This document shows, piece by piece, positions 4,798-58,741 of a stretch of DNA of 64,000 bases; the first letter of the stretch is position 1, and the number at the start of each line of letters is the position of its first letter. This DNA is from Candidatus Pacearchaeota archaeon (GTDB taxonomy: Archaea > Nanobdellota > Nanobdellia > Pacearchaeales > GW2011-AR1), in the NCBI GenBank assembly GCA_040879805.1, contig JBBDJP010000006.1:3699-67698 (forward strand). Reading direction: 5' to 3'. Made by a program: the position numbers and the translations under genes. The notes under the pieces are model-generated. The model had not been told where the DNA came from. It searched no databases and worked only from the letters and a program-made list of their open reading frames with translations.

Positions 4798-5577
4798 ATG
4801 GATTTTAAACCTATTAGTTTAGATATTGATGGTCGTGAAGAGAAACTTTCTAAAATAAAAAGATATGTTCATGAAAGATTTCCATTAATGTTTTACAGAA
4901 CAGATGATTTAATTCATTCTAAGAGAGTCCGATATCATTTAGAAGATGCTGCTGAGGATATTTTCTTTGTTTATGGTAAAGGATTTGATTTTGATTATGC
5001 ACGAACACTCGCAGAAGTTCATGATGATCTTGAGATACTTGAAGGAGATACTACCCTGTTTGAAAAGGAAAGAATGAGTCAAGAAGAATTAAGTTCTTTG
5101 GAAAAAGGAGAATTAAACTCGATTCCAAAATTTCTTGAAGAATATGGAGATTTTGTCAATGGTTACAACTATGAAGGTTTGCTTTTAGATGCAAAGACAA
5201 AAGGAAGTATTGAGGCAAAATTTGTTTCGTTTTTTGACAAGTACGATGGAGGCGGTGAAGCTTGGCATGAAGTTTGGGCAAGTAATCAGGATTTTGTTCT
5301 TCCTGCAGGAGGTAAGAATGGAATGACTGGTGGATATATAAGAAGGCTTAATGAGTTCCCAAGAAAGTATCTTCATATGAAAAATTTCTTTGAAATATTC
5401 CCAGAATATTTACCTGAGCCTTTTGACTTCAAATCTGCTGCAGACAAAGGAAAATTACACGCTTTAGAATCACTGAAAGAAGACAGCGGTTTTCCACTTT
5501 ATGAAAGATGGAAGAAAACGATAATTGAAAGAGAAGGGATTGAAAATCTTATTGTACCTGTAGAATTTAGAACATAA
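4798..5577 (+). CDS. HD-domain phosphohydrolase, possibly a YfbR-like 5'-deoxynucleotidase
   Basis: H...HD...D pattern (HSKRVRYHLED ... LAEVHDDLEILEGDT). The gene lies inside a dNTP-metabolism cluster. The function is inferred. Confidence 0.5.
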   Translation: MDFKPISLDIDGREEKLSKIKRYVHERFPLMFYRTDDLIHSKRVRYHLEDAAEDIFFVYGKGFDFDYARTLAEVHDDLEILEGDTTLFEKERMSQEELSSLEKGELNSIPKFLEEYGDFVNGYNYEGLLLDAKTKGSIEAKFVSFFDKYDGGGEAWHEVWASNQDFVLPAGGKNGMTGGYIRRLNEFPRKYLHMKNFFEIFPEYLPEPFDFKSAADKGKLHALESLKEDSGFPLYERWKKTIIEREGIENLIVPVEFRT

Positions 5578-16266: not shown

Positions 16267-16707
16267 ATGGTCATTGTTGGGATTGAAAAAATAGTTGATA
16301 AGGTAATTTTAGAATATATTAATGCACCTGCCGCAGATTATGAAATTAGAATAAATAGAGAACACGGAGATGATACTATTGATGTAATGTCATACCTGGT
16401 AGATAATCCAAAAGAGGCTGCATTAAAATTATTGGAATATAATTCTGAATGCATAATTGCAATGAATACCTCAAACAACGGATTTAATAAAGACGAAAAT
16501 AAGTTGAGGCATTCTACTTATTTTGGTGCTGGATCTGAAAAAGGAAGATGGAAGGACCACTGGATGACAGAGTGGGAATTTTATTCTCAAGCTGAGTTGA
16601 CAAAAAGTGATCGAAAAATTCTTGAAGGAATAGTAGATATGAGAAATTGTCATGTTCTTTCATTGTATGAAATTGAAAAATTGAGAACTCATTTAGAAAC
16701 AAACTAA
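16267..16707 (+). CDS. hypothetical protein inserted between nusA and S12
   Basis: Track ORF 16141-16707 overlaps nusA, so I trimmed it to the in-frame ATG at 16267 (MVIVGIEKIVDK...). No recognisable motifs. Confidence 0.4.
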   Translation: MVIVGIEKIVDKVILEYINAPAADYEIRINREHGDDTIDVMSYLVDNPKEAALKLLEYNSECIIAMNTSNNGFNKDENKLRHSTYFGAGSEKGRWKDHWMTEWEFYSQAELTKSDRKILEGIVDMRNCHVLSLYEIEKLRTHLETN

Positions 16708-22334: not shown

Positions 22335-22640
22335 ATGACTATTGACCATAAATTTGACAAAGATATTGAAGAACATTTTGATAGTATCAGATCTCTACTT
22401 AAGGAATCTAATATGGGAATATGGGATGTAATAGAAGAATATATGCAAAGTAATCCCAATCTTAAAGAAGAATTAAAAGAAAACAATACAAATATTATTG
22501 AAGCAGGTCATTATTTTTTAGGAAGGTCTTCATACCCAAAAGGACTTATCAGGGAAGCACATCAAATTGTTTACTCAGAAATGTTTGATCAAGTTCAACA
22601 ATCAAATTCAAAAGATTCAAATTCTTATAATAAATCTTAA
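22335..22640 (+). CDS. hypothetical protein
   Basis: A 101-aa ORF in the position where ribosomal protein S10 usually follows EF-1a. It has no S10 similarity. Confidence 0.35.
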   Translation: MTIDHKFDKDIEEHFDSIRSLLKESNMGIWDVIEEYMQSNPNLKEELKENNTNIIEAGHYFLGRSSYPKGLIREAHQIVYSEMFDQVQQSNSKDSNSYNKS

Positions 22641-24525: not shown

Positions 24526-24801
24526 TTAAATATATCTATCAACAGTTCTTTCTAAATCAGAATCTTCTTCATCTCTTCTAAAGTAATTTTTAATACAATC
24601 TTTCTTTTGATTTCTATAAACTTCTAATAACTCCATTGCCTCACTATCCCTTTCATCTTTGGCCCTTTTCCTTAGAGAATCATACTTATCATTAAGAGAA
24701 AGGACTTTCATTGCAAAATTTTTAGGAGTATCTTCATTTATATAAATTGATCTCAATTCATCCATTAAATTATAAATTTCCTTGGAAATAGCTGAACTCA
24801 T
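24526..24801 (-). CDS. hypothetical protein
   Basis: A 91-aa charged helical ORF. No family recognised. Confidence 0.35.
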   Translation of the reverse strand: MSSAISKEIYNLMDELRSIYINEDTPKNFAMKVLSLNDKYDSLRKRAKDERDSEAMELLEVYRNQKKDCIKNYFRRDEEDSDLERTVDRYI

Positions 24802-29646: not shown

Positions 29647-32505
29647 CTAAACTTCCAGACTGACTATCTTACTGATGCCATCGTGCATACTGACTCCATA
29701 GATGTTTGAGGCCTTTGAGATGACTTCATCATTGTGAGTAATGACTATGTACTGGCCTTTCTGCATATACTTCTTAAGAAGCGCTGCAAGCCTCTCTGAG
29801 TTTCTTTTATCAAGAGCTGCATCTATCTCATCAAGCAAATAGAAATAATAAGGGTTATGCTCTTGAATTGCGAAAATTAACGAAAGAGCTACTAGTGTCT
29901 GTTCTCCTCCTGATAACGATTTAACATCAAAATACTTACCATGTCCGGTTTTAACTATGATATTAACTCCTGCTGAAAAAGGATCTTTTTTATTTTCAAC
30001 TTCAAGATAAACTTGTCCTTTAGTACTAAGTTGAGAAAAGTTCCTTGAGAAAAGTCCATTAATTTTTTCAAGAGTCTGAATAAATGCTTTCTTTTTCTTT
30101 ATATCAATTTGGTGGATTATCCTTAAAATCCCTTCTTTTTCATTGGAAATGGTTTCAGTTTTTTCCTGGATTTCATCATATTCTTTTTTAACTTCATCGT
30201 AAACTTCCAACGAACGTAAATTTACATTTCCAATTTTAGAGATTATTTCTTTTGCCCTTGATAGCCTATTGATCAGAGTTTCTTTTTTTGCCTTTATTAT
30301 TTGAATCTTTTCAAATTCAAGCATTTCAGTTTCAATATTTTCTCTTTCTGCATCTATTCTAGCCTTATCAATTTTAAGATTATTAAAAGAATTCTCAGAA
30401 TTATTAAGATAATTTTTATGGGAAAGGCTTTCAGATTCTTTTTCTCTTATTTTTGAATGTAATTGATCTCTTTCCGAGATAAGTTTCTTAAACTTTCCGC
30501 TCAACTCTTCATCTTGTCTTCTTTTTTCACTAAGATCTTTATTTTTTTCTTCAAAAGACTTTTTTAAAACAGAGAATTCTTTTAATATATCTTCCTCTTC
30601 ACTAACAATTTGTTTGAGGGAAATTTTCATTTTATCAATTTCTTTCTGCTTGAAGTTAACTTCAGAATCAATTGTCTCTTTAGTTCTTAGAGAAATGTCT
30701 TGAATTTCCATTTTAAGGTTTTCATACTTTTGATCAATATTAAAATTAGATTCTACAATTTTTTCCAGAGAGTTTTTTCTTTTTTCTAATTCTAAGATTT
30801 CTTCCTTAACTTTAGAAGATTTTTCATTAAGCTGTTTAATTTGAATTTTTTTATCTTCAATTCCAGAAATTATTTTTATATCAGATTCTGTTTTTGAAAC
30901 TTTTTGAGAAAGACTTTCAATATCTTTTTCAAGAATATCTTTCTTTCGATAAATTTCTCCTAACTCTTTGTCAGATTCGCTTATTTTATTTTTAAAAGAA
31001 TTAATTTTTGGAATAACTTCACTCTTTATTTCTTCCATATGATCAGGGGTTATTTTATTCTTACAAATAGGACAAATATCCATTTTTGAAATTTTTTCTA
31101 AAAGATTTCTCTGGTTTTTTATTTCAGACTCACTTACTGAACTCTGCTTTTCAAGTTCAAATTCTCTTTTAACTAGCTTACCCAATATAGACTTCTTATC
31201 TTCAACCTCAGACTTTATTTGATCAAGTTTCTTTTGACTAGATTTGTTATCAAAAATCTTTATAGACAAAGATTCTATCTGTCGTATTAACATATTTGAC
31301 TCATTCTCATAATTTTTCAAAAGACTTCTTTTATCTTCTAACCTCTCCTTAACTGAAGATAACTCTGATTTTACCATATAGAATTTTTTTCTTTGTGATT
31401 CAATTTTATCAAGAATCTTTTTCTTTTCCTCTATCTCTTTTTTCTTTTTGTCTGGGGTTGGAGATTCTTTTTGGATTTCCTTAAGAGAAGCAGTTATATC
31501 TGATATTGAATTTTTTATTTCTTCTTTTTGATTTTTCAAATCTGATAATTTAGATTCATAATTTTCAAGTTTTACTTTTATTCCTGCAAGTTCTGCCCTT
31601 AAATTTGCAATATCTTGATTCAATTTTTCTTGCTCAAAACCAGTAGATTCTTCTATATCGGAATTAATTTCATTTATTCTAGAATTATATTTTTTTATTT
31701 CAGATTCTATTTCAAAAATTTTCTTCTTTATTTTTTCAATTTCTTTATTCTTTTTTTCAATTTCTTTAAGAACATTTTCTCTTTCCTTATTCTTTTTTTC
31801 TAGATCATGGCTCAATATACTTGCCTTAAAATTTTCTATATCCTCTTTAAGTTTCTTATATTTTAATGCTTGCTTCCTCTCATTCTCAAGATTATTTAAA
31901 TAAGAAGTCCTTTCTCTAAGAACTGATTGAATTTCTTTAAGTTTTTCATCTGTTTTTTCCAATTCTTTAAGAGACTTTTCCTTTCTAGATTCATAAATTG
32001 AAATGCCCGAAACTTCTTCAATAACTCCTCTTCTCTCATCTGGCTGCATTCTTACAAAGTTCTGAATTTCTCCTTGAAGAATTATGTTGAATCCTTGAGG
32101 GTCTATTCCTGCTTGTGCAAGCACTGAAAGAACTTCTTGCCTAGTTTTTGTTTGTCCATTTATTTTGTAAATACTCTGACCATTCTTTCTAACAATTCTT
32201 TTCAAACTTAATTCATCCTTATCAATAGAAAAAGTTCCTTCAGAATTATCAAATATAATTTCTACAGAAGCCTCTTTTGCAGGTGAAGCTGCTTTAGATC
32301 CCATAAATATAAGATTACTTGCTTTGGCTGCCCGAAGTGATTTTATTGATAAACGTCCAAGAACAAAACAGATTGCATCAGAAACATTTGATTTTCCTGA
32401 ACCATTTGGTCCTAGAATAACATTAATACCTCTTGAAAAAGGCATTTCAGTTTTCTTTGGAAAGCTCTTAAATCCATGCATCACCAATCTTTTTATGTAA
32501 GACAT
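29647..32505 (-). CDS. smc: SMC-family ATPase with SMC-type head but a central CPxC zinc-hook motif instead of a hinge
   Basis: N-terminus MSYIKRLVMHGFKSF...ILGPNGSGKSNVSDAICFVLG...LRAAKASNLIF. C-terminus LSGGEQTLVALSLIFAIQ...FYLLDEIDAALD...YIVITHND. Heptad-rich sequence fills the space between. MDICPICKNKITPDH has its first Cys at aa 482 of 956 (nt 31063-31074). The start is moved to the ATG at 32505. Confidence 0.8.
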   Translation of the reverse strand: MSYIKRLVMHGFKSFPKKTEMPFSRGINVILGPNGSGKSNVSDAICFVLGRLSIKSLRAAKASNLIFMGSKAASPAKEASVEIIFDNSEGTFSIDKDELSLKRIVRKNGQSIYKINGQTKTRQEVLSVLAQAGIDPQGFNIILQGEIQNFVRMQPDERRGVIEEVSGISIYESRKEKSLKELEKTDEKLKEIQSVLRERTSYLNNLENERKQALKYKKLKEDIENFKASILSHDLEKKNKERENVLKEIEKKNKEIEKIKKKIFEIESEIKKYNSRINEINSDIEESTGFEQEKLNQDIANLRAELAGIKVKLENYESKLSDLKNQKEEIKNSISDITASLKEIQKESPTPDKKKKEIEEKKKILDKIESQRKKFYMVKSELSSVKERLEDKRSLLKNYENESNMLIRQIESLSIKIFDNKSSQKKLDQIKSEVEDKKSILGKLVKREFELEKQSSVSESEIKNQRNLLEKISKMDICPICKNKITPDHMEEIKSEVIPKINSFKNKISESDKELGEIYRKKDILEKDIESLSQKVSKTESDIKIISGIEDKKIQIKQLNEKSSKVKEEILELEKRKNSLEKIVESNFNIDQKYENLKMEIQDISLRTKETIDSEVNFKQKEIDKMKISLKQIVSEEEDILKEFSVLKKSFEEKNKDLSEKRRQDEELSGKFKKLISERDQLHSKIREKESESLSHKNYLNNSENSFNNLKIDKARIDAERENIETEMLEFEKIQIIKAKKETLINRLSRAKEIISKIGNVNLRSLEVYDEVKKEYDEIQEKTETISNEKEGILRIIHQIDIKKKKAFIQTLEKINGLFSRNFSQLSTKGQVYLEVENKKDPFSAGVNIIVKTGHGKYFDVKSLSGGEQTLVALSLIFAIQEHNPYYFYLLDEIDAALDKRNSERLAALLKKYMQKGQYIVITHNDEVISKASNIYGVSMHDGISKIVSLEV

Positions 32506-32546
32506 TAAAAGAAACAAGGAAAAAAGGTTTAAAAGATTTTATAGGG

Positions 32547-33224
32547 TTAAAATCCCAACTTCTTCTGACCAAATTTTCCTGCAGCCTTTTGCCAGGTTTT
32601 CCAACTTCTTCTAAACAACCCTTCTTTTGCAAGTATGTTCGCATTTTTTTCAACAAATGCCTTTGTTTTTGGGTCTGAAGGGTATCCTGATCCAACTTCC
32701 TCGCCATACTTCTTCTTTATCTTTTTCATTTGTCTTTCTCTTTCTTCTTTTGCAAGTATTGAGGCTGATGCGACAACAGGATAGTCTCTATCTGCTTTGT
32801 GCTCACAGACTATTTCTAAATTCGAAAGGTCTTCTATTTTTAATCTTACGCTCTCACTCCATTTTGTTCTATTTACTGAAGGACAATCAAGTATAATTCT
32901 GATTTTTCCAGGTATTTTATTATTTAATTTATTTATTATTTTTGAAACTAAAATTGCTTCTACCTCATTCAAATTAATTCCTTCTTCTAAACTTGCGTCA
33001 ATTTCAAAAGGAGTAATAATCTCTATGTGATATGCGAGAGACTTTTCCTTTATTTCCTTTTCAAGAAATGCTCTTCTCTTTGGAGTAAGATCTTTACTGT
33101 CCTTAGCCCCAAGTTTTTTTAGTTCATTCTCAATCTCTTTGTTCAGAAGACAACCTGCAATAATCATTGGACCAATAACTGGTCCGCGCCCAGCATCATC
33201 TACTCCTAAAAGAAGTGTTTCCAT
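32547..33224 (-). CDS. rnhB: ribonuclease HII
   Basis: LLGVDDAGRGPVIGPMIIAG and ...KADRDYPVVASASILAK are present. Confidence 0.9.
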   Translation of the reverse strand: METLLLGVDDAGRGPVIGPMIIAGCLLNKEIENELKKLGAKDSKDLTPKRRAFLEKEIKEKSLAYHIEIITPFEIDASLEEGINLNEVEAILVSKIINKLNNKIPGKIRIILDCPSVNRTKWSESVRLKIEDLSNLEIVCEHKADRDYPVVASASILAKEERERQMKKIKKKYGEEVGSGYPSDPKTKAFVEKNANILAKEGLFRRSWKTWQKAAGKFGQKKLGF

Positions 33225-35426: not shown

Positions 35427-35732
35427 TTAGTTGCTTGTTTTAAACTCTTTATTCATCTGAGAGATTATCTTCTCAAATCCTTCTTTAACAGTAATTCCTA
35501 AATCCCATCCTTCAGAATCCGAAACAAACTTCCTAGTTTTAGGGGTAACGGAAATGTTAATACTATATTTATGCGCTTTTCCTTCACGATGGTATATTTT
35601 AACTCTAACTTCAATTGACTTTATTTCACCAACAATCCTCTTTATTTTAGATGAATAACTCTTAGTAAACTCATTAAGATCATTCTTTTGTCCTTGGCTA
35701 AAATTCTCCGTTCCAAAGAACTCAATTTTCAT
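35427..35732 (-). CDS. hypothetical protein, possibly HPF/RaiA-like (ribosome-associated) fold
   Basis: 101 aa. The pattern MKIEFFGTENF..S......EF...K..K... then ...VRVKIY.E.....YSINISV......FVSDSEGWDLGITVKEGFEKIISQMNK mirrors the beta-alpha-beta-beta-beta-alpha layout and spacing of HPF-family proteins. This is similarity by eye only. Confidence 0.3.
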   Translation of the reverse strand: MKIEFFGTENFSQGQKNDLNEFTKSYSSKIKRIVGEIKSIEVRVKIYHREGKAHKYSINISVTPKTRKFVSDSEGWDLGITVKEGFEKIISQMNKEFKTSN

Positions 35733-40274: not shown

Positions 40275-41081
40275 ATGATTGTCAAAGAAGAATTTTTAAG
40301 TAGGCTGAGAAAGATTTTTGATTTAAATTTATATGAAGTTAAAGTATGGACTGCCCTTCTTTCACGGGGAACTTCTACTGCAGGAGAATTAAGTAATATT
40401 TCTGATGTCCCAAGATCAAGAACATATGATATTCTTGAAAGTCTTGAAAAAAAAGGATTCATAGTTATGAAACTTGGTAAACCTATAAAATTCATTGCCC
40501 TTAAACCAGAAGAAGTTGTTGAAAGAGTTAAAAAAAACTTGATGAAAGATGCTAAAGATAGGGCTAAAAGACTTGAAAAGCTTAAAGGAGATGAAGTTCT
40601 AAAAGAATTAGATGGTCTTTTTACAAAAGGAGTAAAATTTGTTGAACCTACTGATTTGTCTGGGAGCCTAAGAGGGCGTCAAAATGTTTACAACCATCTT
40701 GATATGATGATTCGTGAAGCTGAGGAAACTATCACAATAATGACTACTGCTGAAGGTCTTAATAGAAAAATGGAAGTTCTTATGCCAAGTCTTGAAAAAT
40801 GTAAAAAGAGGGGCGTCAAAATTAGAATAGCTGCTCCAATTAATAGTAACAATAAGAAAGTTGCTAATGATTTTAAGAAAGTTGCTGAAGTAAGAAATAT
40901 TGAAAAAATTAAAGCAAGATTTACTATAATTGATTCAAATCAATTAATGTTTATGCTCTTGGACGATGAAAAGTTCCATCCCAATTATGACATTAGTGTT
41001 TGGATAAATACTGAATTCTTTGCTCAAGCTCTTGAACAGTTATTTGAACTTGCCTGGAAAGAGATGAAGTCTGTTAAATAG
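40275..41081 (+). CDS. TrmB-family transcriptional regulator
   Basis: The N-terminal wHTH YEVKVWTALLSRGTSTAGELSNISDVPRSRTYDILESLEKKGFI is typical of TrmB. Confidence 0.8.
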   Translation: MIVKEEFLSRLRKIFDLNLYEVKVWTALLSRGTSTAGELSNISDVPRSRTYDILESLEKKGFIVMKLGKPIKFIALKPEEVVERVKKNLMKDAKDRAKRLEKLKGDEVLKELDGLFTKGVKFVEPTDLSGSLRGRQNVYNHLDMMIREAEETITIMTTAEGLNRKMEVLMPSLEKCKKRGVKIRIAAPINSNNKKVANDFKKVAEVRNIEKIKARFTIIDSNQLMFMLLDDEKFHPNYDISVWINTEFFAQALEQLFELAWKEMKSVK

Positions 41082-41574
41082 TTCTATTTTCTTCTAATCC
41101 ACTTAACGTATCAAGCCAATTAGTCCAAAGCATTGACATGACCTTTGAATCTTCTTTTCCTTTATTGATTCCCCTTGGAAGATAACTTAGAAAATTCCTT
41201 TTTTCAAAATCTTTTTCAGGAAAACCATCTTCTAAATCTAATGTAAGGTATTTTAATGAATTCTTCTTTGAAGGTACTGGGAATGTTATATTGCTTACTA
41301 ATCCTGTTTCCTTATTTTCTTCGTTTTTTAATAAAGTATAAGGATCATGAGAATTCAATACATTTATGGGTAAATTATCTTTTATAATGCCATACCTAAA
41401 AACCCTATCCACAATATCTCTTCCTTTTGCCTGCATTCTATTTATAACTTTTAATGGTAAAACAGTACTATAAAGTTTCTTTGCGAGTTCAACTCCTACA
41501 ATCGCTCCAGTGAATTTGGAATCATTATCATAGTAGATTGAAAACCCTTCTACATCTCTAAATCTCTTATTCAT
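41074..41574 (-). CDS. hypothetical protein
   Basis: A 166-aa ORF convergent with the trmB-like gene. No family recognised. Confidence 0.4.
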   Translation of the reverse strand: MNKRFRDVEGFSIYYDNDSKFTGAIVGVELAKKLYSTVLPLKVINRMQAKGRDIVDRVFRYGIIKDNLPINVLNSHDPYTLLKNEENKETGLVSNITFPVPSKKNSLKYLTLDLEDGFPEKDFEKRNFLSYLPRGINKGKEDSKVMSMLWTNWLDTLSGLEENRTI

Positions 41575-41937: not shown

Positions 41938-42393
41938 TTATTTCTTCTTTGTTTTTCTCTTGCCTGATGATTTCTTCTTAGCTTTTCTCTTTGTCATTTT
42001 CTTGACAGGAGACCTCTTCTTAACCTTCTTTTTCGAAGATTTTTTCTTTTTATCTCCACCAGAAATTCCTGAAAGAGTTGCCCTATAAGATATTGGCTTT
42101 TGATCAGTAACTAGTTTTATTGCTCTTTCTGCTACTTTTTTAGATCTTGATATATTATTTCTTATGTCTTTATCAAGCCTCTTAAGTTCTTTGTTCGTTT
42201 TTTTAACAGAAGACGCAAGTGCTCTTTCAGAAATTTTTCCAAAGAAAAACCTTTTACTTTCTTGATCAAATTCATTCAAAAGACCTTGTTTCTCATCCTG
42301 TCTTGCTCTAACAAGTTCACCAGCCACATTGAATTCTTTCAAAAATTTAGCAAAAGAATTCTCATTCATATGTTTTGTTTGAACCATTTTCAC
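41938..42393 (-). CDS. hypothetical protein with extremely Lys-rich C-terminal tail
   Basis: GGAGGTG lies upstream. The C-terminal ~45 aa are GGDKKKKSSKKKVKKRSPVKKMTKRKAKKKSSGKRKTKKK, a histone-H1-like tail. A nucleic-acid-binding role is only a guess. Confidence 0.45.
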   Translation of the reverse strand: MKMVQTKHMNENSFAKFLKEFNVAGELVRARQDEKQGLLNEFDQESKRFFFGKISERALASSVKKTNKELKRLDKDIRNNISRSKKVAERAIKLVTDQKPISYRATLSGISGGDKKKKSSKKKVKKRSPVKKMTKRKAKKKSSGKRKTKKK

Positions 42394-50788: not shown

Positions 50789-51343
50789 ATGAAAAAAGAG
50801 GTTAAGATTAGAAATCTCCTTATTGAAAAAAGAGGTCAGTATTATCTAATCTCAGCTATCATTTTAGGAGTTTTAATTATAGGCATTGTAGCTGTTTCTA
50901 ACTACCTTGAGAGAGGATCTTCTGAAAATATTAACAATCTAGAAGAAGAAATAAAAATAGAAAGTGCAAATGTTTTAGATTATAGTTTAAATCAAGGACA
51001 AAACTTTGAAAGTTTTCATAATACGATGTTAGATTTTACACAAAAGTATATAGAATATTATGGTTCAGATATGGATATCTATTTTTTATTTGGAAGTAAT
51101 TCTAATATGACTCTCAAAGGAGTTCAAAATGTTGATAAAACAATTACACTAATATCTGGAGAAAATAGTGTTGGAGTTACATCTGAAAAAGGGCAATTTT
51201 TAGGAAGTATTAATCCTAGTGGTGAAGAAATTTCATTAGAAATTGAAGAAATAAAATATGATTTTAATTTAAATACTGAAAGGAACTTTAATTTTGTTCT
51301 AGCAGAAAGAGTTTCTGGAAATGAATATATAATCTCTGGATAA
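50789..51343 (+). CDS. type IV pilin-like protein (class III signal peptide)
   Basis: MKKEVKIRNLLIEKRGQ-YYLISAIILGVLIIGIVAV has a basic stretch, then G/Q, then a hydrophobic helix. The start is trimmed from the TTG at 50741. Confidence 0.55.
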   Translation: MKKEVKIRNLLIEKRGQYYLISAIILGVLIIGIVAVSNYLERGSSENINNLEEEIKIESANVLDYSLNQGQNFESFHNTMLDFTQKYIEYYGSDMDIYFLFGSNSNMTLKGVQNVDKTITLISGENSVGVTSEKGQFLGSINPSGEEISLEIEEIKYDFNLNTERNFNFVLAERVSGNEYIISG

Positions 51344-51344
51344 A

Positions 51345-51905
51345 ATGAATAAACAAAAAAATAAAATATATCTTGATAAGAAAGGAATAAGTCCTATGAT
51401 AGCTTATATACTTCTTGTGGTTTTTGCGATCATAATTGGTGCAATAGTTTTTCAATGGCTTGAAACATTCGTTCCTGCTGAAAATTTACAATGTCCTGAG
51501 GGAACATCTATCTTAATTAGTGAGGCAACACTTAATTCAAGTAATTCTGAACTTAAAGTAAGATTAAGAAATAATGGAAGATTTAATATTGTGGGATATT
51601 TTATCCATATTACAAATGAATCTGAAGAAGAACTTCCCACAATAGATATTTCAGATGAACTAGATTCAGGGGAATCTTCTGGAAATCCCATAAATTCTAG
51701 TGGAGCAATCTTCTTTAGGGGGGGACAAGAAAATCCATTTAGTCCTGGAGGACAAGAATTACATATTTTTGATCTATCTGGTTCAGGAATAGGAACTCCT
51801 TATCTATTAAGTATTACACCTACAAGACAACAAGAACACGATGGAGTTTCAAGACTTGTCAGCTGTGGAAGATCAAGAAGAACAACATCTGTAGAAATAG
51901 TCTAA
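51345..51905 (+). CDS. archaeal type IV pilin (N-terminal KGISPxIA motif)
   Basis: DKKGISPMIAYILLVVFAIIIGAIVFQW is the archaeal pilin N-terminal domain signature. Confidence 0.75.
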   Translation: MNKQKNKIYLDKKGISPMIAYILLVVFAIIIGAIVFQWLETFVPAENLQCPEGTSILISEATLNSSNSELKVRLRNNGRFNIVGYFIHITNESEEELPTIDISDELDSGESSGNPINSSGAIFFRGGQENPFSPGGQELHIFDLSGSGIGTPYLLSITPTRQQEHDGVSRLVSCGRSRRTTSVEIV

Positions 51906-51967
51906 TATGAGAATTAATCGTAAATGTTAAGTTTTATAAATTTAATAAAACTAATAAAAAAGTGAAA

Positions 51968-52447
51968 ATGAGAAAAATAAAAAATTCAAAAAAAGGGGTT
52001 TCTCCAATCATAGCCACAGTTCTTTTGGTAGCGATTGTAGTTATCATAGGTCTAATAATATTTTTGTGGTTTAGAAGTCTTACTGAGGAAGCAGTAACAA
52101 AATTTGGAGGTCAAAATATACAATTGGTTTGTGAAGATGTTGAATTTTTAGTGAGTTATTCTTCTTCAGGAATTTTTTCCATTTCTAATACTGGAAATGT
52201 CCCAATAAATAATATTAATTTGGAAATCTCTGAAGGAAGAGACCATAGAACTAAAAGTCTCTCCGAGTTATCTGATGACTGGTCTACGCTTGGTTTGCGA
52301 CAAGGAGAAAGTTTCTCTGGAGATCTAAGTGAGGAATTTTCTGAAGCAGATGAAGTGTTTGCAATACCTGTCTTAATGGGAACTTCTGAAAGTGGTGAAA
52401 AACCACATGTTTGTGAAGAAAGACATGGAAAAGAGGTTTCAATCTAA
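51968..52447 (+). CDS. archaeal type IV pilin
   Basis: SKKGVSPIIATVLLVAIVVIIGLIIFLW. The start is the ATG at 51968 (the track uses the GTG at 51962). Confidence 0.75.
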   Translation: MRKIKNSKKGVSPIIATVLLVAIVVIIGLIIFLWFRSLTEEAVTKFGGQNIQLVCEDVEFLVSYSSSGIFSISNTGNVPINNINLEISEGRDHRTKSLSELSDDWSTLGLRQGESFSGDLSEEFSEADEVFAIPVLMGTSESGEKPHVCEERHGKEVSI

Positions 52448-52462
52448 ATTCCTGGTTAAGAA

Positions 52463-53002
52463 ATGGTAAACAAAAAACCTTATGTTTTAAAAATTAAAAA
52501 TACAAAAGGTCTTTCTGTAGTCATAGGAACTGTTCTTTTAATTGCCTTAACTCTTTTTATTGTAGCAATTGTTTGGGGAATAATAAATAATATTGTCCAA
52601 AGCGAAACAGAAGGAGCGAGTGCATGTTTTGGATCTTTTGAAGAAGTTAAACTTAACCAAAGATTTACATGTTATAATTCTTCTGGAAAAGAATTGCATT
52701 TTTCAATAAATGTTAAGGAAGTTGATTTAGATGGAATTTTGGTGGCAATCTCAATTGAAGGGAGTAGCATAAATTTTGAACTTGAAGAGGAAAGTTCTTC
52801 TATAGAAAATTTGAGAATGTATAGTGGAGGAGAAGTTTCTGCTCCTGGAAAAAATTCAGGTCTTACATATATATTTGATCTTGGAAGTGCGGGTTTTGAA
52901 GAATCTCCAGATACGATAAGAATAGCACCAAAAATTGACGGGATTCAATGTGAAGTATCAGATACTATTACAGAATTTGAATCTTGCTCATCTCTGAACT
53001 AA
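52463..53002 (+). CDS. archaeal type IV pilin
   Basis: NTKGLSVVIGTVLLIALTLFIVAIVW is present. Confidence 0.7.
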   Translation: MVNKKPYVLKIKNTKGLSVVIGTVLLIALTLFIVAIVWGIINNIVQSETEGASACFGSFEEVKLNQRFTCYNSSGKELHFSINVKEVDLDGILVAISIEGSSINFELEEESSSIENLRMYSGGEVSAPGKNSGLTYIFDLGSAGFEESPDTIRIAPKIDGIQCEVSDTITEFESCSSLN

Positions 53003-53049
53003 AAAGAAAAATATTAAAACACATTCTGTTTAAGTTTATAGTAATCATT

Positions 53050-53607
53050 ATGATAATGAAAAAGAAAAAGGTGATTTTTTTGAAAAATAAAAAAGGGCAA
53101 ATTTGGATAGAAACAATAATCTATACTCTTATAGCCTTTGCTTTAATAGGCCTTGTTCTAGCTTTTGTAAAACCTGAAATAGAAGAAATTCAGGATAAAG
53201 GATTTATTGAGAGATCTATAGATGCTTTAAAGGAAATTGATTTTATAATTAACACAATAGGAGAGCCTGGAAACCAGAGAGTCATAGGTCTTGGAATTAA
53301 TAAAGGTTCATTTAACATAGATGGTGAAAATAATACTCTCTTCTTTGAAATTGAGAGTAGACACGAATACAGTGAACCTGGAGAGGATATAATTGATGGG
53401 AATGTGATAATTACTACTGAAGAAGTATCTGGAATAAGCATGGTTACTCTTAAAATAAACTACACTGAAAGATATAATATAACTTTTGATGGAAAAGAAA
53501 CCTCTAAAAGAATCTCTCAATCTCCAACCCCTTACAGCATACTTATAGCAAATAATGGAAAAGATGATCAAAACAAAACTATTATTAATCTGAATGTAGT
53601 AGATTAA
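53050..53607 (+). CDS. type IV pilin-like protein with Glu at +5
   Basis: MIMKKKKVIFLKNKKG-QIWIETIIYTLIAFALIGLVLAF. If cleavage follows the Gly, Glu is at +5, as in bacterial T4 pilins/pseudopilins. The start is trimmed from the TTG at 52984. Confidence 0.6.
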   Translation: MIMKKKKVIFLKNKKGQIWIETIIYTLIAFALIGLVLAFVKPEIEEIQDKGFIERSIDALKEIDFIINTIGEPGNQRVIGLGINKGSFNIDGENNTLFFEIESRHEYSEPGEDIIDGNVIITTEEVSGISMVTLKINYTERYNITFDGKETSKRISQSPTPYSILIANNGKDDQNKTIINLNVVD

Positions 53608-53622
53608 ATAAAAAAGATAAAA

Positions 53623-55173
53623 ATGGCTAAACAAACAATACAAGATTACCCAAGAGTGCCCATAAATTTCTCTCCACAAATTCCTCCTTTAAAAAAAGTT
53701 AAAGATAAAACTAAGATTGATGTTAGATATTGTGTAATTGCTCCCTATGCTTATATACACATTTATTGGGATCCTAAAATATATGAAGTTGTCTGTGAAA
53801 TAGAAGAACCAAAACTTAACGAAGCTGAGGTAGCTTATAGGGAGCAAATTCTTACTGCAATGAGGGATATGATTGATTTTGATACTGTTGTTGAAAAAGA
53901 TATAGAAAAACTCTTAGAATATATAGATAAAAGGTTTAAGATAATTGCTTTTGAACTTGGAATAAATATGTCTTATGAAACTTACAAAAAAATATACTAT
54001 TATCTTGTTAGGGATTTCCTTGGATTTAATGAAATAGATCCTTTACTTAGAGATTATTTTGTGGAAGATATTGAATGTAATGGTGCTGGAGGCCCAGTTT
54101 ATGTTGTTCACCGTGTTTTCAGAAACCTAAAAACAAATCTTGTTTTTCAAGACATGGACCGTCTTGAAAGTTTTGTTGAAAAGCTAGCTCAACGGTCTGG
54201 AAAGCACATTTCTTACGCATCTCCTATCCTTGATGGAAGTTTACCTGATGGAAGTCGAGTAAATGCAACTTACACTAAAGATATAACTTCTAAAGGACCT
54301 ACATTTACTATAAGAAAGTTCACAAAAACTCCTTGGACCCCTCCACAATTAATCTCTTTCAGAACTCTAAGTCCCGAAATGTTAGCATATTTATGGATCC
54401 TTATTCAATATGATATGAACATCTTAATAACTGGCGGAACCTCTTCTGGAAAAACCACTTTACTTAATGCTATTGGATTTTTTATACCGCCTGAAGCAAG
54501 AGTTGTTTCAATTGAAGATACTCGAGAAATTAATCTTCCAAGAGAAAACTGGCTTCCGAGCGTTGTTCGTGGGGCAATTGGGACTGGAAATGTTGGAGAA
54601 ATTGATTTATTCGCACTTCTTAAAAGCTCATTCAGACAGAATCCTGATTATGTTATTGTAGGAGAAGTTCGTGGAAAGGAAGCTTATGTTCTCTTCCAGG
54701 GAATGGCTTCAGGACACTCTTCTGTAAGTACAATGCACGCAGACTCTGTAGACACTGTTATAAAAAGACTTGAAACTCCTCCAATTGAGCTATCTCCAAC
54801 TTTGTTAAATGTTCTTGACTGTGTTTGTATCATGACTCACGCCAGAGTTAAAAATCAAGAAACTAGAAAGGTTAAAGAAATTGTTGAAATAATAAATATA
54901 ACAAATGAGGGAATTGCCATGACAAATACTCCTTTTGTATGGAATCCTAATGAAGATCAATTTTACTTTAAAAAAAATAGCAAAATTTTTGAGAAAATTT
55001 CTAAAAGATTTGGATTAACAATGGAAGAACTACAAACTGAATTCAGAAGAAGATCTCAGATAATTTACAAGGCACATGAACAAAAAATCTATGAATTCCA
55101 AAAATTCCAAGACTTAATTACTCAATATTATAAAAAACCTGAAGAAGTCCTTAAAAAATTAGGGATAGAGTGA
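53623..55173 (+). CDS. type IV filament assembly ATPase (FlaI/ArlI-PilB/VirB11 superfamily)
   Basis: Walker A ITGGTSSGKTTLLNA, Asp box SIEDTREI, Walker B DYVIVGEVRG and His box GHSSVSTMHA are present. Confidence 0.9.
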   Translation: MAKQTIQDYPRVPINFSPQIPPLKKVKDKTKIDVRYCVIAPYAYIHIYWDPKIYEVVCEIEEPKLNEAEVAYREQILTAMRDMIDFDTVVEKDIEKLLEYIDKRFKIIAFELGINMSYETYKKIYYYLVRDFLGFNEIDPLLRDYFVEDIECNGAGGPVYVVHRVFRNLKTNLVFQDMDRLESFVEKLAQRSGKHISYASPILDGSLPDGSRVNATYTKDITSKGPTFTIRKFTKTPWTPPQLISFRTLSPEMLAYLWILIQYDMNILITGGTSSGKTTLLNAIGFFIPPEARVVSIEDTREINLPRENWLPSVVRGAIGTGNVGEIDLFALLKSSFRQNPDYVIVGEVRGKEAYVLFQGMASGHSSVSTMHADSVDTVIKRLETPPIELSPTLLNVLDCVCIMTHARVKNQETRKVKEIVEIINITNEGIAMTNTPFVWNPNEDQFYFKKNSKIFEKISKRFGLTMEELQTEFRRRSQIIYKAHEQKIYEFQKFQDLITQYYKKPEEVLKKLGIE

Positions 55174-55235
55174 TCCATAATAACATTTTATCTTCAAAAA
55201 GAAAAATTTAATAACAAAGATTATCTTTTAAGATT

Positions 55236-55406
55236 ATGATAAAAGAGGAAGATATCTCTGGTATAAGGCAACTTGTTTCAACATTAGAAGAATTTTATTT
55301 AAAATTAAAAGATTCTTATGAAAAAAAAGATGTTGAAAAATTTAATAAAATAAAGGGTGAGCTTATCAAAACACAAAAAGAAATCTTGAGTAGGGTGAAT
55401 TCTTAA
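55236..55406 (+). CDS. small coiled-coil protein (hypothetical), below the track size cut-off
   Basis: My translation is MIKEEDISGIRQLVSTLEEFYLKLKDSYEKKDVEKFNKIKGELIKTQKEILSRVNS (56 aa). The stop abuts the next ATG (TAAATG). Confidence 0.35.
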   Translation: MIKEEDISGIRQLVSTLEEFYLKLKDSYEKKDVEKFNKIKGELIKTQKEILSRVNS

Positions 55407-56756
55407 ATGGCAGAAAATATAATCTCTGTTGAAAATCTTGGGAAAGAAATTTCTCTCGAAAAGAAGATAATAGGAGAAATTGAGTCTTTTATGAGTCACT
55501 TAAAAAATTCTGGAAGCGGAAAAGAACGAAGAATGATTGAATCTCAATTAAATCCTTTAATCGAAAATTTGAAAAAAGCAAGTAATAATGTGTTAAATCA
55601 CGTAGAAGAAGTTTCACTGACAAAATCACTTTCTCAAAACTCTGGGAATGAAAATAATGTATCTGAAGATGTAAAAACTCTTTCAAAAAATACTCCCCAG
55701 TTCCAACCTTTGCAACAAAATTCTATTCAAACAGGTCAAAATAATCTAAACAAAAAAGAAGATAATAGTCTTACAGATATGGAACAACTTTCTGTGACTC
55801 GTTTAAAAAATAAAGAGGAAAAAGTTGTCAAGAAGAAAAAGAAAAGGCCTAGTGGTTTTGTGAAAGTGTCTAGTAAATATTTCTACAAGCTTTCTTCTTC
55901 ATTTATAAAAAAAAATATGTTTGAGGATTTGAGAAGAAATTTGATTAAAGGGAATATTGATTTTGTTCCTGCAGCATATATTTCAATGATTTTCTTTTCT
56001 ACACTTCTATCCCTAATCACATCAATATTCTTGGTAGCATTTTTTTCATTTTTTACAATAACCTTTTCTCCACCATTCATAATAGGAGTAGATGAAAGTT
56101 TTGGGGGAAGATTTCTTAAATTCTTTTGGATACTCTTCGCAGTTCCTTTAATAACTTTCTTAATTACCTATTCTTATCCATCTCTGGAAAGAAAATCTCT
56201 GGAAAGAAAAATTGAGACTGAGCTTCCTTTTGCAACAATACATATGTCTGCAATATCTAACTCTATGATTGAACCAAGCAAAATTTTTGGTATCCTTGTT
56301 TCAACAGGTGAATACCCTTTTCTTAGTAAGGAACTTATTAAGCTTCAAAATGAGATAAATATTTATGGATATGACCTTGTCACCGCGCTAAGAAATAGGG
56401 CTTTTAATAGTCCCAGTAGAAAACTTGCTGAACTATTTAACGGACTTGCAACAACTATAACTTCTGGAGGAAATCTTCCTGTTTTCTTTGATAAAAGGTC
56501 TCAAAGCCTTCTCTTTGAATATAGGCTTGAAATGGAAAAACAAGGAAAAGCTGCAGAAACTTTTATGGATATTTATATTAGCGTTGTTATTGCAGCACCA
56601 ATGGTGCTTATGCTTTTATTAATGATGATGAGTATAAGTGGTCTTGGAATAGCTCTAAGTCCAGGGACAATTTCTTTGATTATGATTTTATCAGTCACTC
56701 TAATAAATATAATGTTCTTGGCATTTTTACAGCTAAGACAACCTGAAAGCAAATGA
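55407..56756 (+). CDS. type IV filament membrane platform protein, first T2SSF-like domain (FlaJ/TadB-like) with long hydrophilic N-terminus
   Basis: LPFATIHMSAISNSMIEPSKIF...YGYDLVTALRNRA...LAELFNGLATTITSGGNLPVFF, flanked by TM segments. Confidence 0.75.
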   Translation: MAENIISVENLGKEISLEKKIIGEIESFMSHLKNSGSGKERRMIESQLNPLIENLKKASNNVLNHVEEVSLTKSLSQNSGNENNVSEDVKTLSKNTPQFQPLQQNSIQTGQNNLNKKEDNSLTDMEQLSVTRLKNKEEKVVKKKKKRPSGFVKVSSKYFYKLSSSFIKKNMFEDLRRNLIKGNIDFVPAAYISMIFFSTLLSLITSIFLVAFFSFFTITFSPPFIIGVDESFGGRFLKFFWILFAVPLITFLITYSYPSLERKSLERKIETELPFATIHMSAISNSMIEPSKIFGILVSTGEYPFLSKELIKLQNEINIYGYDLVTALRNRAFNSPSRKLAELFNGLATTITSGGNLPVFFDKRSQSLLFEYRLEMEKQGKAAETFMDIYISVVIAAPMVLMLLLMMMSISGLGIALSPGTISLIMILSVTLINIMFLAFLQLRQPESK

Positions 56757-57592
56757 AGTTTAAAAAAACTCATGGAATTTGGATCATAATTTCATTAGCT
56801 CTTATTGGATCTTCATTTTTCGTAGGCGATAGATTTTCTTTCCTTGTCATGGGTGTTGGAATATTAATTGGGGCTGCTCCTTTTGTATTTTCAGCAATTA
56901 AAGAAACTAAAGAAAATGCTGAAAAAGAAGATATGTTCTTAGAATTTTCAAGAAACCTTGTAGAAAGTGTAAAAACGGGAACTCCAATAAACAAAAGTAT
57001 AATCAACGTTAAAGACAAACCATACGGAGTTCTTAGTAAGCATGTTAAAAAACTAGCTAATCAAATTTATATGGGAATTCCTTTAAATAAAGCTCTTAGA
57101 ACTTTTTCAAAGGATATAAGCAACAAAACAATTTCAAGATCTTTGACTTTAATAAGTCAGGCAGAAAGAAGTGGAGGAGAAATTGGAGAAATCTTGGAGG
57201 CAGTTACTGAAGCTGTGAGTATGGCTGAGAAATTAAAGAAAGAAAGAAAAGCTGCAATATCTACCTTGGTTGTTCAGGGTTACATAATTTTTTCAGTTTT
57301 TATTATCATTATCTTGGTGTTGCAATTCCAAATAATTCCTTTACTTGGAGGCATCTCTCTTGACACAGGAACAACAGATGCAGGAATATTTGGATCTGGA
57401 GGGGCCCCTATAGATCAAGAAGAAATCTCTTCTGCATTTTTATATTTATTAATGGTTCAAGGTCTTTTTACAGGATTAGTAATTGGAAAGCTTTCTGAAG
57501 GAAATATTAAAACAGGTATTAAACACTCATTCATCCTTGTACTAATTGCTTTCATGGTTTCTACAGGAGCAAATATTTTATTCGGAGGATAA
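56753..57592 (+). CDS. type IV filament membrane platform protein, second T2SSF-like domain (FlaJ/TadC-like)
   Basis: LVESVKTGTPINKSI...LANQIYMGIPLNKALRTF...LISQAERSGGEIGEILEAV plus TM segments. It overlaps the previous gene by 4 nt. Confidence 0.75.
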   Translation: MKFKKTHGIWIIISLALIGSSFFVGDRFSFLVMGVGILIGAAPFVFSAIKETKENAEKEDMFLEFSRNLVESVKTGTPINKSIINVKDKPYGVLSKHVKKLANQIYMGIPLNKALRTFSKDISNKTISRSLTLISQAERSGGEIGEILEAVTEAVSMAEKLKKERKAAISTLVVQGYIIFSVFIIIILVLQFQIIPLLGGISLDTGTTDAGIFGSGGAPIDQEEISSAFLYLLMVQGLFTGLVIGKLSEGNIKTGIKHSFILVLIAFMVSTGANILFGG

Positions 57593-57593
57593 T

Positions 57594-58316
57594 ATGAAAT
57601 TAAAAAATAAAAAAAAAGGATCTCATGTAGGAATCATGCTCTCTTTTGTTATGTTTGTCATGTTTGTTTTTTTTATTTATATGATTGTTCAACCTTCATT
57701 GTCAAATCAAGAAACGGGTAACTTCATTGAAGGGTTAGAGACAATAATCTTTGACCAAGCTTCCATAGAATTAAAAACAATCTCAGTGAAACTTAATACT
57801 CTTGACGATAGCTGTGTTGAACTAAACAATTTTCTAGATGAAGTGGATATTGATAAAAGAGTTGTTGCAAAAGATTCTGAAGATTCTTCTTTGATTGTAG
57901 GAAACTCCGGATCTTCAAGTGATCTTGGAATTAATAGTAATGGCAAGACTTTTTTTAGAATTTATCATTCTGATGAATTTGAAATAATTGGTGTAAGTCT
58001 AAGTGATTGTGACAGTTTAGATTTAGGGACTGGATATGAAATAGGATTATTAAAATCTGATAAAATCATATTTGAACCAAAAATTGAAAACATTCTGCAA
58101 GAATATGAAGATAATCCAAATAGTTTCAAATCAGAATTAAATATATCTGAAGAAAATGAATTCAGTTTAGGATTTATATATAGTAATGGGACTTCAATTA
58201 TTGTAGGAGAAGAAAATCTTCCTGAAACAAGTATTTATCTTGATAAGATTCTTGTAAAATATATTGATGAAGATGGCTCAATAAAACTTGGATACTTAAG
58301 AATTGGAACATGGTAA
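57594..58316 (+). CDS. type IV pilin-like protein
   Basis: GGAGGA lies 4 nt upstream. MKLKNKKKGS-HVGIMLSFVMFVMFVFFIYMIV is present. The start is trimmed from 57546. Confidence 0.55.
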   Translation: MKLKNKKKGSHVGIMLSFVMFVMFVFFIYMIVQPSLSNQETGNFIEGLETIIFDQASIELKTISVKLNTLDDSCVELNNFLDEVDIDKRVVAKDSEDSSLIVGNSGSSSDLGINSNGKTFFRIYHSDEFEIIGVSLSDCDSLDLGTGYEIGLLKSDKIIFEPKIENILQEYEDNPNSFKSELNISEENEFSLGFIYSNGTSIIVGEENLPETSIYLDKILVKYIDEDGSIKLGYLRIGTW

Positions 58317-58741
58317 ATAAGATGATTAAAAATAAAAAAGGTTGGATAAAAATAGTAGAATCATTCCTAGCAATACTATTAGTTGCAGGCATAGTTATTG
58401 TTGTAGTAGGAGGTGAAAATACAGAGGAAGATTTTTCTGAAATAAAAATTATGCAATCTTCAATTCTGATGGAAATTCGAATGGATAATTCAATAAGGGG
58501 AGAAATAATTGAAACAGGGGGAGAAGTTTCATGGGAAGATGTTCAATTTCCAAATTCTATAAAGAATAAAGTAATTGATGCAACACCTATTTCTTTTGAA
58601 TGTGAGGGAAAAATTTGTGATCCTGGAGAAGATTGTTCTATTGAAGAAAAAGATTCAAATATTTTTTCTAAATCTTCAATAATATTTGCAGACATTGATA
58701 ATTATAACCCTAGAGTTCTGAAACTTTACTGTTGGGATTAA
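58310..58741 (+). CDS. type IV pilin-like protein
   Basis: MVNKMIKNKKG-WIKIVESFLAILLVAGIVIVVVG is present. Confidence 0.55.
   Translation: MVNKMIKNKKGWIKIVESFLAILLVAGIVIVVVGGENTEEDFSEIKIMQSSILMEIRMDNSIRGEIIETGGEVSWEDVQFPNSIKNKVIDATPISFECEGKICDPGEDCSIEEKDSNIFSKSSIIFADIDNYNPRVLKLYCWD

Follow-up and report, generated by a model that had tools for sequence, protein, structure and literature searches.

A canonical SMC head joined to a predicted Rad50-type zinc hook, without a detectable hinge, in a protein family of DPANN archaea

What holds the two chains of an SMC protein together when the protein has no hinge? The question is raised by a gene in a 64,000-nucleotide stretch of DNA from a Candidatus Pacearchaeota archaeon (assembly GCA_040879805.1, contig JBBDJP010000006.1, positions 3,699 to 67,698 of the forward strand), which we refer to as the window. 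An initial annotation, made from the sequence alone, had described the product of this gene as an SMC-type ATPase head combined with a Rad50-type zinc hook. The hook-type smc gene occupies 29647..32505 on the minus strand (Pfam SMC_N, TIGR02169) and encodes 952 amino acids followed by a stop codon at 29647-29649. The 956 amino acids counted in the annotation correspond to a long open reading frame (ORF) that begins at an upstream TTG (29647-32517, minus strand). An ATG four codons downstream gives 952 amino acids, and because all 59 aligned orthologues in a 60-sequence family alignment have the MxYIK start at the methionine encoded by this ATG, we take 952 amino acids as the correct product. 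The residue numbers of the annotation were four too high, and the CxxC cysteines, the first of which it had placed at residue 482, are C478 and C481 and not 482 and 485. The length of the family is tightly fixed, with a mode of exactly 952 amino acids and with most of the best GTDB loci encoding 951-958. A database entry that is 100% identical to the window protein (P0001) is named chromosome segregation SMC family protein, with Candidatus Pacearchaeota as its organism, and the hook-type proteins carry only an SMC label in the databases ("chromosome segregation protein SMC").

Both halves of the ATPase head align with the Smc head of Pyrococcus. The N-terminal half (residues 1-168; 32002..32505, minus strand) matches residues 1-257 of 5xei with 222 bits, and the C-terminal half (residues 827-952; 29650..30027, minus strand) matches the C-terminal part of the Pyrococcus Smc head with 149 bits. 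When mapped to the DNA, the Walker A motif GPNGSGKS lies at 32389-32412, the signature LSGGEQ at 29899-29916, and the Walker B motif FYLLDE at 29827-29844, all on the minus strand; together with VITHN these are the motifs quoted in the initial annotation, and all of them are present. The Q-loop residue is Q144, and the H-loop residue is H924. In the family alignment, the columns of the Walker A motif, Q-loop, signature, Walker B/D-loop, and H-loop are invariant, and the head-proximal coiled coil (residues 181-214) likewise consists in large part of invariant positions. Judged from the invariant motifs, the ATPase looks like a working one. The Walker B/D-loop of Rad50 has the form LDEPT..LD, whereas the hook SMC has DEIDAALD there.

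Comparison with curated profiles and with proteins of known structure gave a consistent assignment of the head. Pfam SMC_N matched residues 3-945 at 3.7e-47. The NCBIfam models SMC_prok_A (TIGR02169, 564.1 bits vs a cut-off of 729.4) and SMC_prok_B (TIGR02168, 522.2 bits vs 567.35) scored below their equivalog cut-offs, and both matched in two stretches with the hinge region skipped; the shortfall fits a protein in which the hinge portion of these profiles has no counterpart. The NCBIfam Rad50 models reached at most 126.5 bits (NF041034, cut-off 1000) against cut-offs of 700-1087, and the scores were 58 bits for SbcC (cut-off 478), 54 for RecN, and 49.5 for arcadin-4. Among PDB sequences, Pyrococcus Smc heads ranked first (5xei, 7.6e-108; 5xns, 1.8e-97; 4i99, 8e-88), followed by Bacillus subtilis Smc and the eukaryotic SMC2/3/1/4 proteins, while Rad50 appeared only at 8e-15. 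A Rad50 identity was rejected on the curated scores and the PDB ranking. The initial annotation had read an SMC signature and not a Rad50 one, and the profile search against SMC, Rad50, SbcC, RecN, and arcadin models classified the head in the same way, not as a bona fide Rad50 or SbcC. The heads are those of a canonical SMC protein with intact ATPase motifs.

We also considered whether the protein belongs to the archaea-specific SMC-related proteins (ASRPs; ClsN/coalescin, Sph1, and Sph2), in which case its architecture would already have been described. ASRPs are archaeal proteins of the SMC superfamily without a hinge, and a zinc-hook motif is present in most of them (Yoshinaga et al. 2022, PMC9389158), and the NCBIfam ASRP model (NF045487) does match the window protein, in partial stretches only, with 138.6 bits. 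This score, however, is far under the cut-off of 300 and under the 564 and 522 bits of the SMC models, and the Pyrococcus Smc head is matched at 7.6e-108. The tree published with that study sets ASRPs apart from SMC as a clade of their own, and neither Nanoarchaeota, Woesearchaeota, nor Pacearchaeota is mentioned in that work (PMC9389158). The hook SMC is canonical by its head and has arms and a locus collinear with those of a true hinge-bearing SMC, as described below. Membership in the ASRPs is highly improbable, and we rejected it on the curated scores (138.6 vs 300) and the PDB ranking.

No hinge could be detected between the two halves of the head. SMC_hinge (PF06470) had no match in the window protein even at E ≤ 1. 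A custom hinge profile was built from four relatives with a Pfam-recognized hinge and iterated on the best 150 representatives; it detected a hinge in 99, none of which has a CPxC motif. An AlphaFold2 model of the full-length monomer, computed from the 60-sequence alignment (mean predicted local distance difference test score (pLDDT) 73; arms mostly 72-91), shows no globular insertion. The predicted helices span residues 169-344, 352-415, and 424-474 before a 12-residue loop at 475-486, and residues 487-586, 590-604, 609-729, 741-758, and 764-826 after it. The N-terminal coiled-coil strand thus comprises residues 169-474 (31084..32001, minus strand), with predicted breaks at 345-351 and 416-423, and the C-terminal strand comprises residues 487-826 (30028..31047, minus strand), with breaks at 587-589, 605-608, 730-740, and 759-763. 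The absence of a hinge, proposed in the initial annotation, is borne out by Pfam, the custom profile, and the AlphaFold2 model, and no cryptic hinge fold is seen in the predicted structure. The protein is 190-207 amino acids shorter than the nearest hinge-bearing SMCs (1142 and 1159 amino acids), close to the ~200 amino acids by which it had been estimated to fall short of canonical SMC.

The only non-helical stretch at the apex is the loop MDICPICKNKIT (residues 475-486; 31048..31083, minus strand), which contains C478 and C481 as predicted ligands within CPIC (31063-31074, minus strand). These residues, 478-481 of 952, lie in the apical loop in the models, in line with the earlier placement of a CPxC motif at the coiled-coil apex near the midpoint of the protein. 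The window protein has only three cysteines (C46, C478, and C481), of which C478 and C481 are the only ones outside the head; at this cysteine frequency, ~2e-4 CxxC motifs would be expected by chance in the ±10 residues around the midpoint. The columns of C478, P479, C481, T486, and H489 show no variation across the 60-sequence family alignment. All 120 closest protein clusters (62-100% identical) have CP[IVL]C and no other CxxC, and CP[LVI]C is found at the equivalent position in 33 of the best 150 representatives at 50% identity, down to ~39% identity, and in all 80 of the best 80 GTDB species-representative loci. From 208 distinct hooks we derived the consensus E-K-I-S-K-[MLI]-D-[IV]-C-P-[LVI]-C-K-[SN]-K-I-T-x-E-H, in which C, P, and C are present at 100% and T and H at 97%. 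Both cysteines are conserved in every orthologue examined.

The same segment resembles the zinc hook of Rad50. In the PDB alignment, the Pyrococcus furiosus Rad50 (PfRad50) hook KGKCPVCGRELTDEH has the C-P-x-C-x3-[IL]-T-x-E-H spacing of the family consensus, and CPVCGRELTDEH of PfRad50 parallels the family hook consensus D-[IV]-C-P-x-C-K-x-K-I-T-x-E-H. When the central 120 amino acids were compared with PDB sequences, the two best matches were PfRad50 hooks (1l8d, 3.3e-4; 6zff, 1.4e-3). Of 31 hook segments from the family, 26 matched Pfam Rad50_zn_hook at E ≤ 0.01, the best of them at 2e-7, and at most 2 of the 31 matched any other family. The orthologues P0066 (26.5 bits) and P0078 (24.6 bits) score above the Rad50_zn_hook gathering threshold of 24.3 bits. 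In an AlphaFold2 monomer prediction, a 116-amino-acid hook segment folds as a helix-loop-helix with a pLDDT of 95.5. A Foldseek search with this fold against 350,542 PDB chains returned Rad50 zinc hooks for all of the top five hits (1l8d_A, 1l8d_B, 5gox_A, 6zff_B, and 6zff_A), with template modeling (TM) scores of 0.45-0.79 when normalized by query length.

Some of the scores speak against this assignment. Rad50_zn_hook (PF04423) gives the window protein itself only 17.8-17.9 bits, below the cut-off of 24.3. A family profile of the hook was weaker against PDB sequences, with 1l8d ranked first but at an E-value of 0.07. The Foldseek E-values are modest as well (5e-3 to 0.13), which is normal for a helical hairpin, and the ranking is unambiguous all the same. 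The resemblance of CPxC to the Rad50 zinc hook, suspected in the initial annotation, is found both in sequence (1l8d, Pfam) and in fold (the Foldseek top five). By sequence, apical position, conservation, and predicted fold, the tip appears to be a Rad50-type zinc hook.

Two cysteines per chain cannot complete a tetrahedral zinc site alone. Since two thiolates per chain are insufficient, we infer that two chains share one zinc in the manner of Rad50, and that the hook would bind zinc and mediate dimerization. Alternatively, CPxC could be a structural turn or an intrachain metal or redox site, and dimerization, if any, could proceed via the heads and arms only. Zinc binding is only predicted here, and a tip dimerizer is perhaps dispensable, given that Pacearchaeota SMCs of ~800 amino acids exist that have neither a hinge nor tip cysteines (P0141-P0143 and P0146). 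We nevertheless regard a function of this kind as very unlikely: the cysteines of one chain do not suffice for a tetrahedral site, motif and flanking residues resemble the Rad50 hook both by sequence and by fold, and both cysteines and the proline are invariant down to ~40% identity.

How a hook came to stand where a hinge is expected can be addressed by comparison with hinge-bearing relatives. By head distance, the nearest of these are SMCs of 1142-1159 amino acids named Candidatus Woesearchaeota (P0148 and P0152). BLASTP aligned residues 1-471 of the window protein with residues 1-474 of P0148 (1142 amino acids) at 41% identity and with few gaps, and residues ~490-952 with ~690-1142 at 35% identity. 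The hinge of P0148 spans residues 508-618 according to Pfam and 503-647 according to the custom profile. The sole large difference between the two proteins is that ~210 amino acids with the hinge are replaced by ~17 amino acids with the hook; both arms are collinear with those of P0148, and arm length is therefore preserved.

The gene order around smc tells a similar story. The rnhB gene (RNase HII; 32547..33224, minus strand; Pfam RNase_HII, 1.9e-47) lies directly upstream of smc on the same strand, as the initial annotation had it. In related loci, which were read ±10 kb around each gene, rnhB is upstream of smc on the same strand in 55 of the 64 GTDB hook loci whose sequence extends far enough upstream, in L003, a divergent hook locus, and also in the hinge-type Woesearchaeota loci L005-L007. 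As a conserved neighbor, rnhB marks the ancestral position of smc. L001 (Pacearchaeota) and L007 (Woesearchaeota) each have a His_Phos_1 gene directly upstream of smc. Because the rnhB-smc order is common to the hook and hinge types, the gene looks like the SMC orthologue of its lineage with a swapped module, and not like a paralogue. A head-only neighbor-joining tree with 21 full-length hook sequences (the window protein and 20 representatives) placed all 21 in one clan together with three tipless Pacearchaeota SMCs. The bootstrap value of this combined clan, 48/100, is moderate and counts against the orthology argument; the hook sequences do not come out as strictly monophyletic in the head-only tree, the three tipless SMCs being nested among them. 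Weighing these results, we consider it quite probable that the protein is the orthologous condensin-type SMC of its lineage, in which the hinge module of ~210 amino acids was replaced in situ by a Rad50-like hook of ~17 amino acids while the strands kept their ancestral length.

Far from being a one-off, the hook architecture is conserved in at least 80 species genomes of DPANN archaea and is the usual form of SMC throughout a large clade of archaea. A scan of GTDB species representatives found at least 582 stretches encoding relatives, and the best 80 of these all encode full-length hook-type proteins, with 45-66% identity. The names given to organisms with hook-type proteins are Pacearchaeota, Nanoarchaeota, and, for part of the submissions, Woesearchaeota. 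Since the genome is metagenome-assembled and a few homologous contigs sit in bacterial bins, one might suspect a faulty assembly or a gene in decay, such as a hinge-loss pseudogene or a chimeric contig. We assign this explanation a negligible probability and regard it as already refuted by the intact full-length ORFs, mostly of 951-958 amino acids, on independent assemblies (from JGI, ENA, NCBI, and Logan), by the invariant ATPase motifs, and by the conserved gene order. The contigs with a hook SMC that are filed under bacterial bins, namely L009 (Bacillota), L067 (Omnitrophota), L081 (Dojkabacteria), and P0078 (Patescibacteria group bacterium), are probably mis-binned DPANN contigs. L037 and L038 (assembly CAZOAN01) were considered as paralogues and rejected, as their proteins are 100% identical and have the same rnhB neighbor, which points to assembly redundancy.

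Several variants were noted within and around the family. The orthologues P0002, P0020, P0033, P0123, and P0128 and those of loci L068 and L069 contain an intein and are ~1465-1487 amino acids long. The intein, of ~525-535 amino acids, follows Lys38 of the Walker A motif (GPNGSGK | C...HN | SN) and carries Pfam Intein_splicing and LAGLIDADG_3. The same two Pfam families mark an intein in the Lhr-type helicase that lies upstream of the Woesearchaeota smc gene in L005 and L006 (1-3033, minus strand).

The tipless SMCs P0141, P0142, P0143, and P0146 (779-804 amino acids) have complete heads and neither a hinge nor a CxxC, and their clusters have members named Pacearchaeota, such as PIU75690.1 (P0291, in the P0141 cluster). 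In P0141, P0142, and P0146, homology to the window protein ends at ~341-441 and restarts at ~589-612, and the distal arm together with the hook seems to have been deleted near the predicted breaks at 345-351 and 605-608. In the head tree, P0141-P0143 branch from inside the hook clade, and we tentatively read these three as secondary losses. Hinge-bearing mini-SMCs were also found (P0149, 943 amino acids; P0157, 963; P0207, 818), with much shorter arms and a hinge at ~344-560. In P0149, a single BLASTP match to the window protein covers residue 345, which is the same break point as in the tipless SMCs.

If the gene is the SMC of its lineage, the question arises of which partners it works with. 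ScpA, ScpB, and Mre11 families were not detected by Pfam in any of 30 scanned ORFs of the window, the genes flanking smc included, which agrees with the earlier statement that none of them is adjacent. Seven ORFs of the window, encoding 91-259 amino acids, have no Pfam match at E ≤ 0.01 (4798-5577, 16267-16707, 22335-22640, 24526-24801, 35427-35732, 41074-41574, and 41938-42387), and none of them is ScpA/ScpB-like. Within the ±10 kb read in related loci, an Mre11-type gene was not found beside smc. A kleisin partner, and a kleisin-bridged complex, are assumed in our reading; against this assumption, ScpA/ScpB was not found in the window or beside smc in the related loci, as judged from the Pfam labels of L001-L007 and from Pfam scans of 10 unannotated neighbors in related loci. 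Likewise, the hook SMC would be the only SMC in the genomes that carry it, a view that has to reckon with the possibility of a second, hinge-bearing SMC elsewhere, outside the ±10 kb that were read.

The lack of a detected kleisin gene leads to another explanation, namely that the protein has shifted to Rad50-like work and serves as a tether of DNA ends or sister DNAs or as a repair factor, perhaps free of kleisin, and not as a chromosome-organizing condensin. The zinc hook is a hallmark of Rad50, hooks can link complexes (PMC7752040), and in reduced DPANN genomes one protein might cover two roles. Against such a shift, the Mre11-type nuclease that usually has its gene beside that of Rad50 or SbcC is not encoded next to smc, and the heads match SMC far better than Rad50. 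The near-invariant head-proximal coiled coil at 181-214 is what might be expected of a retained partner site, the rnhB-smc locus is the same as that of the hinge-type SMC in the sister lineage, and the arm length is preserved. We consider a shift to Rad50-like work unlikely and favor a condensin-type SMC whose hinge was exchanged for a hook.

We propose the following working for such a condensin-type protein. Each chain would fold back on itself, with one ATPase head on an intramolecular coiled coil of ~300-340 residues per strand and with the CPxC loop at the tip. Two chains would be permanently linked tip to tip through a single Zn2+ ion coordinated by four cysteines, with each CPxC contributing two. 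As in every SMC, ATP would govern the engagement and release of the heads, and the resulting V- or rod-shaped dimer would organize the chromosome and aid its segregation, a role like that of Smc-ScpAB in other archaea and in bacteria. The chromosomal function is inferred. The design is known to be viable because engineered swaps work in both directions: growth is normal with a B. subtilis Smc whose hinge has been exchanged for the Rad50 hook of P. furiosus (PMC5344682), and in the reverse swap fission-yeast Rad50 with the MukB hinge is functional (PMC6969161). The authors of the B. subtilis study called the dimerization domain's nature "surprisingly uncritical" and found arm length to be critical (PMC5344682), and the preserved arm length of the hook SMC fits their idea of tuned arms.

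Elsewhere in the window, the neighbors of smc in the Pfam scan are rnhB, methyltransferases, GNAT, PCMT, and DtdA. At 50789-58741 (plus strand) lies an archaeal type IV pilus-like locus with a T2SSE ATPase (53623-55173, plus strand), two T2SSF membrane proteins (55407-56756 and 56753-57592, plus strand), and several small ORFs with Pilin_N-type N termini. This locus may be the "cassette-like region" that the initial annotation placed after smc.

Is the architecture new? The closest known counterpart is the engineered B. subtilis Smc(Zh) (Burmann et al. 2017, PMC5344682), which has the same combination of SMC heads, full-length arms, and a Rad50-type CPxC tip. It is, however, a laboratory construct in a bacterium, whereas the present gene is natural, has become fixed in a large clade of archaea, and combines a distinct hook sequence (CP[LVI]CKxKITxEH) with arms collinear with those of hinge-bearing relatives. 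Canonical archaeal SMCs (Pyrococcus 5xei, 5xns, and 4i99; Woesearchaeota P0148 and P0152) share the heads and the arm length, and those of Woesearchaeota share the rnhB-smc locus as well, but they have an SMC_hinge, and the hook SMC falls under the TIGR02169 equivalog cut-off. Rad50 and SbcC share an ABC-type head, a long antiparallel coiled coil, and an apical CxxC hook, which in the case of PfRad50 (1l8d and 6zff) is like the one described here, yet Rad50-type head scores are not reached by the hook SMC, and Mre11 is not a neighbor. Hinge-less SMC variants known from metagenomes of marine Actinobacteria (2025, PMC12153180) likewise have SMC heads and a coiled coil; they are bacterial and explicitly without CXXC (PMC12153180), whereas the hook SMC has a conserved hook instead.

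The full-text literature, in which subscription journals were thinly covered, yielded no account of a naturally occurring zinc-hook SMC, whether from DPANN or from other organisms. The initial annotation had suggested that the hybrid architecture is undescribed. This stands for the natural form, none having been found in the literature, and it does not stand for the engineered Smc-hook (PMC5344682) or for the zinc hooks of ASRPs (PMC9389158). Both parts, and their combination in an engineered protein, are thus already known, and it is the natural version that we did not find described.

These findings suggest that nature repeated a domain swap that, in the literature searched, has so far been found only as a laboratory construct. 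A more far-reaching proposal is that an order-level DPANN radiation (Pacearchaeota and relatives) has a natural Smc(Zn-hook) as its only SMC, that the hinge is dispensable in nature, and that the lineage could run a minimal SMC machine; we put it forward tentatively, as slightly more open to doubt than to belief.

What the hinge contributes beyond dimerization is a long-standing question, and the roles proposed for it are DNA binding, service as a gate through which DNA enters, and contacts made with the heads during loop extrusion. If the proposal is true, SMC proteins in nature, and not just an engineered one in B. subtilis, can function without the hinge and the roles proposed for it (binding of DNA, opening of a DNA gate, and communication between hinge and heads). 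The lineage may go further still, with sister variants of ~800 amino acids that have lost both the distal arm and any recognizable tip dimerizer, and with no kleisin found.

In practical terms, a compact SMC of 952 amino acids would lend itself to structural and single-molecule work, and one clade would offer a natural set of hinge-type, hook-type, and tipless SMCs for comparison. An annotation rule would also follow, as hook proteins are labeled plain SMC and score under the equivalog cut-offs owing to the missing hinge. The family documents modular exchange within the superfamily, in which the SMC branch and the Rad50 branch swap dimerization modules, and a natural, ancient, and widespread hook SMC would show that evolution reached the engineered solution and kept it under selection.

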